Positions 15,699-64,000 of a stretch of DNA of 64,000 nucleotides are shown one piece after another (positions within the stretch are counted from its first letter, which is position 1; every line of letters begins with the position of its first letter). A program made the translations under genes and the position numbers. This stretch comes from Escherichia coli. GTDB lineage: Bacteria; Pseudomonadota; Gammaproteobacteria; Enterobacterales; Enterobacteriaceae. Location of the stretch: the NCBI RefSeq assembly GCF_050920415.1, contig NZ_CP169309.1; one strand, 5' to 3'. Below the pieces are notes generated by a model. It was not told the origin of the DNA. It worked only from the letters and a program-made list of their open reading frames with translations, and searched no databases.

Positions 15699-17309
15699 TC
15701 AATGTTTCACAATATACATAGTCCGGCTATACGCCACATCTTCCGGGTTATTAATGGGATAACCTTTCAGCCACGGCTTGATTAATCGTCCATTGGTATA
15801 TTGATAAATTGGTGCAATCGGTGCTTGCTCCATGAGGATTTTTTCTGCCGCATTGTAATCGGCATTACGCGCTTTAACGGTATTTTCCGTCGATGCCTGG
15901 GCCAAAACTTTGTCGTAGGCCGGGTTGTTAAAGCGTGAAATGTTGCCTGAATGCGTTGACGTTAATAATGTCAGGAAGGTGGAGGGTTCATTATAATCCC
16001 CCACCCACGAGGCGCGGATAACATCAAAATTACCTGTATTACGACTATCGATATAGGTTTTCCATTCCTGATTTTGCAGTTTGACATCTACACCAAGGTT
16101 CTTTTTCCACATCGATGCCACAGCAATCGCAATTTTTTGATGGTTTTCTGAAGTATTATACAAAAGCGTCAGCTTCAGCGGTTTTTGCGGACCATAACCG
16201 GCTGCGCTCAACAAAGTTTTTGCCTGCGCATTCAGTTCTTCCTGACTCATTTGTTCAAACGGCGAAGGCTCCGGCGTGAATCCGGCAGTAACATCTGGCG
16301 TAAAATGCCACGCTGGTTTTTCGCCCGTCCCCAACACTTTTTCGGTCATCAGGCGGCGATCTATCGTCATACTTAATGCCAGACGAACGCGCTGATCTGC
16401 CGTCGGCCCTTTTTGCGTGTTAAACGCATAATAATAGGTTCCGAGCTGCGGCGGTGTATAAACCTGCCCCGGAATATCCTTCAACAGCTTCTGATACATA
16501 TTTTTGGGGAAGGATTCGGTGATATCAATATCCCCCGCGAGATAACGCTTAGTGGCTGCGGATTCCTGATTAATTGGCAGGAAGGTCACTTTTTGCAACA
16601 CCGTTTTGGCGTTATCCCAATAATGGGTATTTGGCACCACGACCAGTTTTTCATTGACTACACGCTCTTTAAGAACATAAGCGCCATTGCCGACCAGATT
16701 TCCGGGTTTCGTCCACTCTTTCCCGCTTTCTACGTTAGCTTTTTGCACCGGGAAGAAGGCAAAATTGGCTGTTAAATTCACAAACCACGGCAACGGTTTA
16801 TCAAGCTGGATTTTCAAAGTACGGGCATCAACCGCGGTGACGCCTAGCTGATCAGGCGTAGCTTTACCATCAATAATCGCCTGTGCGTTGTTGATTCCCG
16901 CCAGCGCGGCAAACCAGGCAAACGGCGACAACGTTTTTGGGTCAACCAGACGTTGCCAGCTGTAGACAAAATCCTGTGCCGTTACCGGTGTGCCATCCGC
17001 CCATTTTGCGTTATCGCGCAGGGTGAAAGTCCAGATACGGTTGTCATTACTTTTCCACTGAGTCGCAACGCCGGGGACAATCTCCCCTTTCTCGTTCTGA
17101 TTCACCAGTCCTTCAAAAAGATCGCGAATGACCTGAATCTCTGGCAGACCCACGGCTTTAGCGGGATCCAGCGACGCAGGCTCATCTTTAATATGGCGCA
17201 CCAGCTCCTGCTTCTCTGCCAGTACTGTGCCGCTCGGAACTTCTGCAGCATACGAAAGAGACATTATGCAAAGTGGCAAAAACGATATATAAATCATGAT
17301 TTTATTCAT
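15699..17309 (-). CDS. mppA: murein tripeptide-binding periplasmic protein MppA (OppA paralogue) with replaced N-terminal signal peptide
   Basis: family-5 SBP sequence; mature part from SLSYAAEVPSG matches MppA; N-terminus MNKIMIYISFLPLCIM differs from the K-12 sequence as I recall it; start at 17309 chosen within longer track ORF. Confidence 0.78.
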   Translation of the reverse strand: MNKIMIYISFLPLCIMSLSYAAEVPSGTVLAEKQELVRHIKDEPASLDPAKAVGLPEIQVIRDLFEGLVNQNEKGEIVPGVATQWKSNDNRIWTFTLRDNAKWADGTPVTAQDFVYSWQRLVDPKTLSPFAWFAALAGINNAQAIIDGKATPDQLGVTAVDARTLKIQLDKPLPWFVNLTANFAFFPVQKANVESGKEWTKPGNLVGNGAYVLKERVVNEKLVVVPNTHYWDNAKTVLQKVTFLPINQESAATKRYLAGDIDITESFPKNMYQKLLKDIPGQVYTPPQLGTYYYAFNTQKGPTADQRVRLALSMTIDRRLMTEKVLGTGEKPAWHFTPDVTAGFTPEPSPFEQMSQEELNAQAKTLLSAAGYGPQKPLKLTLLYNTSENHQKIAIAVASMWKKNLGVDVKLQNQEWKTYIDSRNTGNFDVIRASWVGDYNEPSTFLTLLTSTHSGNISRFNNPAYDKVLAQASTENTVKARNADYNAAEKILMEQAPIAPIYQYTNGRLIKPWLKGYPINNPEDVAYSRTMYIVKH

Positions 17310-17351
17310 ATATTTTTTAACCTTAAAATAATATGGTACACACAATGGTAC

Positions 17352-17381
17352 ACAAAAAGAAACGAGGCGTTAGCCTCGTTT
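17352..17381 (-). terminator. rho-independent terminator after tail fiber gene
   Basis: hairpin aacgaggc-gtta-gcctcgtt followed on minus strand by TCTTTTTGTG. Confidence 0.55.
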
Positions 17382-17409
17382 CGCGGCGATGTTCTTCGCA
17401 CATCACCTC

Positions 17410-63400: not shown

Positions 63401-63533
63401 CCAACCACGATCCGCAAAAATCCAAAATTACCCATAAAACAACCTCACCAGCGAGCTAAATAGCATATGCTGCTACACTTGCTTACCTTTTTGCGATTAG
63501 CTCGTTATAGAGCGTTACAGAGAGGATTTTAAA

Positions 63534-63635
63534 ATGGACGGTAAACACGTTTTCGCCCTGGCCTTTGCCATCGCTGCGGCAATCGCTGTTAACGTCGCTT
63601 TGTTCGGCGGTTTGTACCTTCTCGTTAATCCATAA
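63534..63635 (+). CDS. small hydrophobic peptide (33 aa)
   Basis: AGAGGA RBS; single TM helix. Confidence 0.3.
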   Translation: MDGKHVFALAFAIAAAIAVNVALFGGLYLLVNP

Positions 63636-63796
63636 CCTACCTACCAGTCTGTAAATCGAAAATTAGCCACCTGATAGCGCCTCTGGCGCAAAAAAGACAC
63701 TGCACCCTTACAAGTGGGTTACGCGGTGGAATTTTGCGTTGTAGCGCGTTTTACGGAAAATAAATATACATTCTGTAAACATGAGGAAGTAACATT

Positions 63797-64000
63797 ATGT
63801 CGCAAAGAAAGATCAGCGATGAGGAATTAATCGCTGAGTACAAGAAGGGGAAAACTTACAAGCAAATAGCCGAAGAATATGGAATGGCAAAACGCAACGT
63901 CGAACGACTGGGCGCGCGGTTGGCGAAACGCGGTTTAATATCCACGCGTCGCGCGCCGGGTTTTGGCGTCAATGGTGAGTCTTTGCTCGTTGATAAAGAT
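63797..64000 (+). CDS. hypothetical HTH-containing protein, 5' portion (runs off window end)
   Basis: ATG at 63797 after promoter-like motif; YKQIAEEYGMAKRNVERL HTH-like. Confidence 0.35.
   Translation, partial: MSQRKISDEELIAEYKKGKTYKQIAEEYGMAKRNVERLGARLAKRGLISTRRAPGFGVNGESLLVDKD

Follow-up and report, generated by a model that had tools for sequence, protein, structure and literature searches.

The closest described systems are the mEpimmI coliphages, a non-lambdoid group of 48 genomes with high synteny (PMC11893012). The archetype is mEp021 (MH706966; Negrete-Mendez et al., 2025, PMC11893012), and the group has been described with a conserved architecture, a functional repressor, the Gp17 protein, three nut sites and the terminators t1–t5 (PMC11893012). 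Gp17 in the group has conserved arginines at positions 17, 19, 20 and 24, and integration, by a tyrosine integrase of a type corresponding to the site, occurs at ydaM, abgT or mppA, with LSU61 the only member with a type III integrase and the mppA site in the 2025 paper (PMC11893012). Group members are siphoviruses with Nus-dependent growth and are reported not to respond to UV induction.

Extent of the prophage and its insertion site

In the window analysed here, a stretch of 64,000 nucleotides of Escherichia coli DNA, positions 17262–64000 almost certainly represent the left ~47 kb of a ~53-kb, apparently intact prophage of the mEpimmI group of temperate siphoviruses, mEp021-like, with divergent, probably antiterminated arms and inserted at the 5' end of mppA (Table 1). 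Its completeness is judged from the LSU61 prophage of E. coli O157:H7 (NZ_CP038336), by which ~6 kb at the right, including the second attachment site and the integrase gene, would fall outside the window. The initial annotation had placed a single prophage at 17297–64000, and this stands with the left edge moved by 35 nt, to the end of host homology: the host sequence is 100% identical to an unoccupied E. coli site through base 17261, 51 nt into mppA, where the match stops, so that 17262 is the first phage base. The resulting fusion exchanges the MppA signal peptide and preserves the SLSYA/AEVPSG junction.

LSU61 carries its prophage at the same point and in the same orientation. Within the ydaM/abgT/mppA integration region the site seen is the mppA 5' end, at the LSU61 junction, with the integrase gene beyond the window. 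No integrase lies inside it, as had been noted initially; in LSU61, the closest relative, this gene is found ~5 kb past the point matching window base 64000, and from that comparison it would be expected here ~5 kb past the window end. The element is one more mosaic mEpimmI member and the third seen at mppA, after LSU61 and GF66.2. A tRNA scan returned no tRNA genes in the window, and Rfam at gathering thresholds matched nothing in the prophage, its window matches being the host sRNAs FnrS and McaS only; a permissive Rfam scan of the immunity region gave a single match at chance level. Exact-sequence look-up found no record identical to the replication protein or the winged-helix protein.

Table 1. 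Features of the window, in order of position.
Feature	Position	Strand	Remarks
mppA (host)	15699..17309	-	first ~17 codons from phage DNA
Left host/prophage junction	17254..17261		GAAAGAGA, the core common to both LSU61 prophage ends
Intrinsic terminator, strong	17359..17382	-	ends the long minus-strand series, right before mppA
Tail fibre	17410..19782	-	C-terminal S74 chaperone domain; module unlike that of LSU61
Island 1: Cor-like superinfection-exclusion lipoprotein	19942..20181	+	
Two membrane-protein genes downstream of J	20178..21082	-	PHROG 425 and 557; missing in LSU61
Tail tip J, I, K (NlpC/P60), L	21135..26511	-	
Island 2: three small genes	26618..27407	+	includes an 82-aa KilAC-domain protein
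Minor tail protein	27766..28119	-	lambda M-like
Island 3: small ORF, then ParE-like toxin	28303..28714	+	
Tape measure protein	29046..31385	-	
Island 4: hypothetical gene	31688..32098	+	137 aa
Tail tube, tail terminator, connectors, capsid, decoration, PHROG 760, MuF-like, portal, TerL, TerS	32117..42273	-	capsid is DUF6260
Portal	38854-40248	-	
TerS and TerL	40307-42273	-	Sf6 type
Island 5: single gene	42744-43034	+	
Lysis cassette: holin, lysozyme, Rz-like spanin	43984..45135	-	
Terminator	45160..45178	-	just upstream of holin gene; mEp021 t5 homologue, 98.7% identical over 77 nt
Q-to-lysis block	45244..51048	-	~27 small genes of unknown function
Q-like antiterminator	51048..51770	-	PF03589; 95% identical to mEp021 gp37
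RusA	51949-52356	-	
NinG	52353-53048	-	
Candidate nutR2	53175..53211	-	boxA TGCTCTTTAA and hairpin
16-pair hairpin terminator	53261..53296	-	homologue of mEp021 t4
C5 methyltransferase, two hypothetical genes, Dam	53309..55592	-	Dam at 55053-55592
SSB	59089-59508	-	
ERF recombinase	59508-60149	-	
Gp17-type N-like antiterminator	60299..60589	-	94.8% identical to mEp021 Gp17
Candidate nutR1	60640..60682	-	boxA CGCTCATTAA and hairpin GCCGCTGGAAGTGCGGC
Sigma-70-like promoter	60937..60965	-	TTGACT, 17 nt, TATATT; best of the region; faces gp17 operon
Bidirectional terminator	61066..61083		after repressor gene; homologue of mEp021 t1
CI-type repressor	61089..61736	-	HTH_3 and Peptidase_S24 (Pfam)
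Divergent control region	61737..62041		between repressor and winged-helix genes
Candidate promoter	61796-61823	+	TTGACC, 16 nt, TAAACT
Candidate nutL	61901-61935	+	in divergent control region
Winged-helix gene, "Cro position"	62042..62296	+	84 aa
Replication protein	62300..63400	+	Lin1244_N domain and group-conserved C-terminal part
Next replication-arm gene	63797..64000	+	start only, cut by window end

Strand layout

Of the 85 mapped genes, 74 lie on the minus strand (37.6 kb coding) and only 11 (3.6 kb) on the plus strand, and the GC skew is negative over 17–61 kb and positive over 61–64 kb. The Pfam and PHROGs profile matches bear out the minus-strand series first read from the sequence, comprising the repressor, N-like, erf, ssb, dam, ninG, rusA, Q, lysis, packaging, head and tail genes. 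The plus strand, however, is not limited to the HTH and replication genes, as had been thought, since eight more genes occupy it, in five islands within the series. Genomes of the mEpimmI group are built of two divergent arms joined at the immunity region. The replication arm carries the winged-helix protein, the replication protein, a helicase and ninB, and ends in the integrase gene; the long arm runs from the CI-type repressor through gp17, erf, ssb, the methyltransferases, ninG, rusA, Q and the small genes to lysis, packaging, head and tail. The islands probably hold accessory genes, for the Cor-like lipoprotein, the ParE-like toxin and the KilAC protein, and presumably have promoters of their own.

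The departure from lambda and P22 recorded in the initial annotation is real, in that ninG, rusA, Q and the late genes point the same way as the repressor, N-like and erf genes and opposite to the replication genes. It does not amount to the "rearranged mosaic" proposed there; the layout is one conserved throughout a non-lambdoid group already described. Whole-genome comparison shows the window to be collinear, immunity region included, with seven isolated plaque-forming relatives (mEp021, mEp010, mEp013, mEp044, mEp515, mEp554 and MagusPhagus), to which 74–86% of the prophage DNA in the window aligns at 82–90% nucleotide identity. The two-arm layout is likewise present in the annotations of mEp021 and MagusPhagus. 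Around 30 E. coli prophages are also collinear, LSU61 being the best, and of the 5426 complete E. coli genomes searched, 34 have this gene order with these strands. Ordered alignment blocks span the whole prophage, both against all of mEp021 and against LSU61; of the 91 annotated genes of the LSU61 prophage, 81 have orthologues here with order and strand unchanged, and six of the other ten lie past the window end.

A defective, non-inducible mEpimmI remnant is an unlikely description of this element. It would be consistent with a prophage right end lying outside the window, with the plus-strand gene of island 5, which aligns to 97 of the 129 residues of its LSU61 homologue, and with a C13 homopolymer at 47816–47828 that is unique to this copy; yet the core genes seen are all full length, at 76–100% identity to LSU61, and the regulatory sites and terminators are intact. 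It is very improbable that a lambdoid prophage acquired the layout when its nin-Q-late module was inverted or translocated in this strain alone, despite the presence of lambda-type parts (CI-like repressor, N-like, NinG, RusA, Q-like, and tail tip M, L, K, I and J), as order and strands are identical in the seven phages and in those 34 genomes, and published phylogenomics places the group outside the lambdoid clades (PMC11893012). Although 61.7–62.0 kb is the sole large strand switch and the gene layout is odd for a lambdoid phage, two adjacent prophage remnants lying head to head at the immunity region, a reading raised initially, are refuted to near certainty by the collinearity with isolated phage genomes: the same junction occurs within the single genomes of plaque-forming mEp021 (gp13 to gp20) and MagusPhagus, single alignments span it (mEp021, window 59275–62036; LSU61, window 50324–64000), and the repressor, both divergent promoters and nutL belong to a common 305-bp control region.

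The strand layout noticed initially is already published and group-wide. What this prophage does illustrate is that a stable phage lineage can have its lambda-type parts (CI, N, Q, nin genes) wired in another order.

Probable antitermination and the immunity region

The N-like gene matches PHROG 271 at 1e-11, and Pfam N_peptide at just 0.009. Its product keeps the arginine-rich motif, NARERRRIKR, with R17, R19, R20, R21 and R24 all present. Exactly three boxA-plus-hairpin matches occur in the prophage, at 61901(+), 60682(-) and 53211(-), which are the positions given for the nut sites in the mEpimmI paper; assignments were made by position and by sequence identity with mEp021. Over 60 nt candidate nutR1 is identical to the mEp021 stretch upstream of gp17, and the 65 nt shown for candidate nutR2 are identical to the stretch where nutR2 was placed. 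Eight annotated mEp021 terminators have homologues at collinear positions in the window, and strong sense-strand terminators are found at 61066, 53261, 45160, 35150, 32815, 29019, 27542, 21108 and 17359. The three nut-site matches, the eight terminator homologues and the 95%-identical Gp17 together suggest that antitermination most likely carries transcription through the long minus-strand series.

By homology with mEp021, the early promoter downstream of the repressor gene would read the long arm, as others have demonstrated in that phage. RNA polymerase would be modified by Gp17 and host Nus factors first at nutR1 and then, ~7.5 kb further on, at nutR2, and the modified polymerase would pass intrinsic terminators, which has also been demonstrated by others in mEp021; nutL would serve the replication arm in the same way. 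Read-through of the pre-holin terminator, and of those that follow among the structural genes, is presumed to depend on the Q-like protein. No convincing late promoter was found right after Q, where there is no intergenic gap, and no good candidate was seen before the t5-like terminator. A candidate at 47.78 kb was ruled out as a general late promoter, its segment being missing from mEp021.

The repressor is 99.5% identical to that of LSU61 and matches mEp021 Rep021 at 193 of 198 residues (counted by eye), and is of the immunity I type (Rep021: Cro/CI HTH and S24; highly conserved in the group) at the sequence level. The best family matches of the winged-helix protein are the N-terminal domains of replication initiators, and its gene differs from all relatives examined. 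The gene in the Cro position, initially described as an HTH gene there, looks like a replication-initiator-type winged helix and not like a Cro, and no convincing Cro was found in the window prophage. Repeats of 22 bp are present at 62729–62783, inside the replication protein gene.

A separate observation concerns a conserved, strictly intergenic 12-nt motif, T[A/T]TACA[A/G]AATG[G/T]. Copies lie wherever the long arm meets an opposite-strand island, and at all three candidate early control regions: the divergent one, the one upstream of the gp17 promoter and the one immediately upstream of nutR2. A literature search returned unrelated primer sequences only. As a sigma-70 -35 or -10 element the motif has no consistent partner hexamer at 16–18 nt (by inspection), by eye it does not fit the consensus of sigma-54, IHF, TyrR, DnaA, CRP, LexA or the 434 operator, and the orientation bias relative to transcription of a stoperator-like element is absent, the orientations being mixed. 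It may, though less likely than not, be bound by a regulator of the phage, whether the Rep repressor or some Cro-like factor. If it were, the mEpimmI group would have a distributed operator network, and a third regulated early promoter would feed nutR2 and so account for the presence of three nut sites; the group would then be without a classical Cro, because the gene in that position is a variable replication-initiator winged helix.

Comparison with known phages

The prophage shares gene order and strands with mEp021 throughout, and the opposite-strand islands break the tail genes at the same places. The repressor (193/198), Gp17 and Q (both 95%) are closely similar, the terminators are homologous, candidate nutR1 and nutR2 agree fully with the matching mEp021 stretches, and the chromosomal neighbourhood ydaM-abgT-mppA is shared. 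Overall nucleotide identity, however, is only ~83–88%; mEp021 inserts at ydaM and the window prophage at mppA, identity falls to 31% in the winged-helix gene, J, the tail fibre and the N-terminal half of the replication protein are unlike, and part of the small-gene block (47.3–48.5 kb) is missing from mEp021.

LSU61 is closer, with 93–98% identity over 43.8–64 kb, ~90–96% in most structural genes, 99.5% in the repressor and 98.4% in the replication protein. It differs in the C-terminal part of the tail fibre, in the major capsid (76%), decoration (57%) and winged-helix (67%) proteins, and between fibre and J, where LSU61 has a plus-strand DUF6453 pair and this prophage a Cor-like lipoprotein and two minus-strand genes. 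The tail fibre/Cor region is unlike that of every relative examined.

With lambda and P22 the prophage has in common a CI-type repressor between divergent early promoters, N-type antitermination at boxA/boxB with Nus factors (here by homology), a Q-type protein, nin-region genes (ninB, ninG, rusA), a P22-type erf and a lambda-like tail tip. In contrast to both, no Cro could be assigned, there are three nut sites and not two, and ~5.8 kb of small genes lie between Q and lysis. Here ninG, rusA, Q, lysis and all the structural genes follow the N/recombination arm and not the cro/replication arm; the integrase ends the replication arm in the mEpimmI relatives and the N/recombination arm in lambda.

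Gene content and strand organization

Gene identities were assigned by domain searches of the window genes, and all genes that the initial annotation had named on the minus strand were confirmed there. The minus strand carries 74 of the 85 mapped genes and the plus strand the other 11, and GC skew is negative over 17–61 kb and becomes positive at 61–64 kb. The claim that only the HTH and replication genes lie on the plus strand was too narrow, however, as eight more plus-strand genes form five small islands within the series, the minus-strand genes from repressor to tail fibre.

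Features of the window, with positions and strands
Feature	Position	Strand	Remark
CI-type repressor	61089–61736	-	HTH_3 + Peptidase_S24
N-like gene (gp17 homologue)	60299–60589	-	PHROG 271; Pfam N_peptide match weak
ERF	59508–60149	-
SSB	59089–59508	-
Dam	55053–55592	-
C5 methyltransferase	53309–54067	-
NinG	52353–53048	-
RusA	51949–52356	-
Q	51048–51770	-
Holin, lysozyme, Rz	43984–45135	-
TerS (Sf6 type), TerL	40307–42273	-
Portal, MuF-like, decoration and major capsid proteins		-	beyond TerL
Tail terminator, tail tube, tape measure protein, M, L, K, I, J		-
S74 tail fibre	ends at 17410	-
HTH gene, 84 aa	62042–62296	+	"Cro position"
Replication protein	62300–63400	+	Lin1244_N
Further gene	63797 onward	+	start only
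Cor-like lipoprotein	19942–20181	+	island
Three genes, incl. KilAC fragment	26618–27407	+	island
ParE-like toxin, small ORF upstream	28303–28714	+	island inside tail genes
Hypothetical gene	31688–32098	+	island
Partial gene	42744–43034	+	island
BoxA plus hairpin	61901	+	leader of replication arm
BoxA plus hairpin	60682	-	upstream of gp17
BoxA plus hairpin	53211	-	just past 16-pair hairpin terminator, ahead of ninG, rusA, Q
12-nt motif	19853, 26580, 28136, 28205, 31425, 31453, 47775/47800, 53228, 53295, 60967, 60989, 61775/61810, 63768
FnrS and McaS sRNA genes	2497–2614 and 5992–6087		expected places in flanking chromosome

The initial annotation described a strand organization unlike that of lambda and P22, and this is real, but its attribution to local rearrangement was not borne out, the same layout being found in collinear relatives. 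Both halves of the prophage align to seven isolated E. coli phages (mEp021, mEp010, mEp013, mEp044, mEp515, mEp554, and MagusPhagus) with 82–90% identity and 74–86% coverage. In the deposited annotation of mEp021, archetype of the mEpimmI phage group, one strand carries the repressor gp15, gp17, erf, ssb, dam, ninG, rusA, Q, and the lysis, terminase, head and tail genes, and the other carries the HTH gene gp14, the replication protein, a helicase and ninB, with the integrase at the far end; the layout of MagusPhagus is the same. Of 5426 complete E. coli genomes, 34 match the window's right-hand 22 kb; O157:H7 strain LSU61 (NZ_CP038336) does so best, at 94% over these 22 kb. Alignments to mEp021 and to the LSU61 prophage form strictly collinear blocks, and 81 of the 91 annotated genes of the latter have a window orthologue with order and strand kept, six of the other ten lying past the window end. 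On these comparisons, the strand layout is the standard one of a phage lineage that is already known and viable. Two adjacent remnants joined at the immunity region are ruled out, as single alignment blocks span that region.

The plus-strand protein in the Cro position is similar to the winged-helix domains found at the N-terminus of replication initiators (PHROG 4617, 8540, 1032), as well as to the N-terminus of mEp021 gp13. Its identity is 31–67% among phages with repressors 90–99.5% identical, and this far greater variation argues against a Cro role; it is probably an origin-binding protein rather than Cro. Within the replication gene, the part coding for the linker contains three to four 22-bp repeats (CCATGGCACAACCATG...; 62729–62783, also 63029–63050), with A-rich tracts on their flanks. 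They recall the lambda origin within gene O, and look like a lambda-style origin inside the initiator gene.

Between Q and the holin gene (45244–51048) lie ∼27 small genes (46–121 aa) of unknown function; in lambda, the late promoter and lysis genes come almost directly after Q. The 47.3–48.5 kb part of this block is absent from mEp021, and an intergenic spacer within the block holds a 13-G homopolymer (47816–47828; C13 on the coding strand), where LSU61 has CCCCCGC and MagusPhagus CTCAGC; the run either is prone to slippage or reflects a sequencing artefact. The LSU61 counterpart of an early-region gene (58022–58291) is annotated as a toxin–antitoxin toxin subunit. The LSU61 portal protein (25981–27354 of the LSU61 locus compared) is named "anti-CBASS protein Acb1 family protein" in RefSeq, which looks misleading because its window orthologue (38854–40248) matches Pfam Phage_portal_3. 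Part of the tail fibre (18378–19171) shares 85% identity with an unannotated record named "Campylobacter phage C13", the host label of which looks doubtful, and also matches two E. coli phages at 77–78%.

Insertion at mppA and the prophage ends

Bases 1–17261 are ordinary E. coli chromosome, with 95–99.9% identity to 5423 of 5426 complete genomes, and dbpA, abgA, abgB, abgT, and mppA are among the annotated genes beneath the best matches. ORF sizes and order fit the K-12 arrangement: dbpA, zntB, dgcM (ydaM), smrA, abgR, abgA, abgB, abgT, ogt, fnr, uspE, ynaJ, ynaI, mppA. Identity to an unoccupied site is perfect through 17261, 51 nt within the mppA coding sequence, and then ends; all DNA to the right is phage. 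The junction is the same as that of LSU61, the sole mppA (type III integrase) member in the published group (PMC11893012), and a second complete genome with a relative at mppA is GF66.2. The core common to both LSU61 prophage ends is GAAAGAGA, within AGCAT..GAAAGAGA, and the window has the latter, longer stretch at 17246–17261.

The phage end (17262–17309) swaps the first ∼17 mppA codons for MNKIMIYISFLPLCIMSLSYA, the host remainder being 15699–17261. The SLSYA|AEVPSG junction and cleavage-site residues are preserved, and the reading frame stays open because the phage-supplied stretch keeps this junction. The gene thereby gains a new start and signal peptide; insertion has moved its native promoter away, and immediately upstream now lies a strong terminator of the phage (17359–17382).

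In LSU61, the replication arm, the plus-strand genes, runs ∼5 kb past the point matching base 64000, with a 372-aa gene, a helicase, ninB, and then a minus-strand integrase; the other end lies ∼6.2 kb past that point, for a prophage of ∼53 kb in total. By analogy, a similar right end is expected here.

Transcription of the long arm

How the series works has been shown by others in mEp021, and we infer it here. The region's best sigma-70-like promoter (TTGACT, 17 nt, TATATT; 60965–60937, minus strand) sits between the repressor's terminator and gp17. Exactly three boxA-plus-hairpin sites occur in the prophage, and each minus-strand site agrees base for base, over at least 60 nt, with the mEp021 stretch at the published nutR1 or nutR2 position (PMC11893012). 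The homologue of the N-like antiterminator Gp17 is 94.8% identical to the characterized protein and retains R17, R19, R20, R21, and R24, and the mEp021 terminators T1, T3, T4, T5, T6, T7, T8, and T12 have homologues at collinear positions. Because strong terminators on the sense strand occur all along the series, the last of them just before mppA, an arm-long transcript needs processive antitermination. Antitermination by the Gp17 homologue at the candidate nut sites would most likely let RNA polymerase read through the long arm. The obvious candidate antiterminator for the late part is the Q-like protein, at 95% identity to mEp021 gp37; its promoter was not found: no gap follows Q, and no promoter of good quality precedes the t5 homologue.

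The t4-like hairpin and the candidate nutR2 boxA flank a possible weak promoter (TTGTTC, 16 nt, TATACT; 53226–53253, minus strand), which overlaps a copy of the 12-nt motif below and, if real, would provide nutR2 with a separate start point. The 343-nt gp17 leader (60590–60932, minus strand), from promoter to gp17, folds unusually well (-112 kcal/mol, z = -3.4 vs. shuffled controls) and has no Rfam match.

The most over-represented prophage word at k = 9, 10, and 11 is T[A/T]TACA[A/G]AATG[G/T]. Intergenic DNA makes up only 12.4% of the prophage, yet all 12 strict matches fall there, and the host part of the window has none; the binomial figure of ∼1e-11 is generous, because the pattern was fixed only once its hits had been seen. 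The same motif appears at orthologous spots of mEp021, LSU61, and MagusPhagus. It adjoins the gp17 promoter and covers the -10 of a candidate replication-arm promoter; two or three copies surround the terminator that precedes nutR2, and copies stand at every junction with plus-strand islands or strand switch. We treat the motif as a putative site for regulator binding. The 2025 paper (PMC11893012) neither describes it nor defines an operator, and it was not found in the searchable literature.

Affiliation with the mEpimmI phages

The mEpimmI group comprises 48 genomes of high synteny on a branch separate from lambdoid phages, with a functional CI-like repressor, an N-like Gp17 acting at nutL, nutR1, and nutR2, terminators t1–t5, and four integrase types linked to insertion at ydaM, abgT, or mppA (PMC11893012). 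As judged from sequence, the prophage has every one of the group's defining features that can be tested in this way, whereas it lacks the gene order that defines lambdoid phages. The prophage is an additional member of this already published group, and differs as a mosaic from its closest relative, the LSU61 prophage, in four places: the tail fibre, the Cor region, the capsid and decoration genes, and the winged-helix gene.
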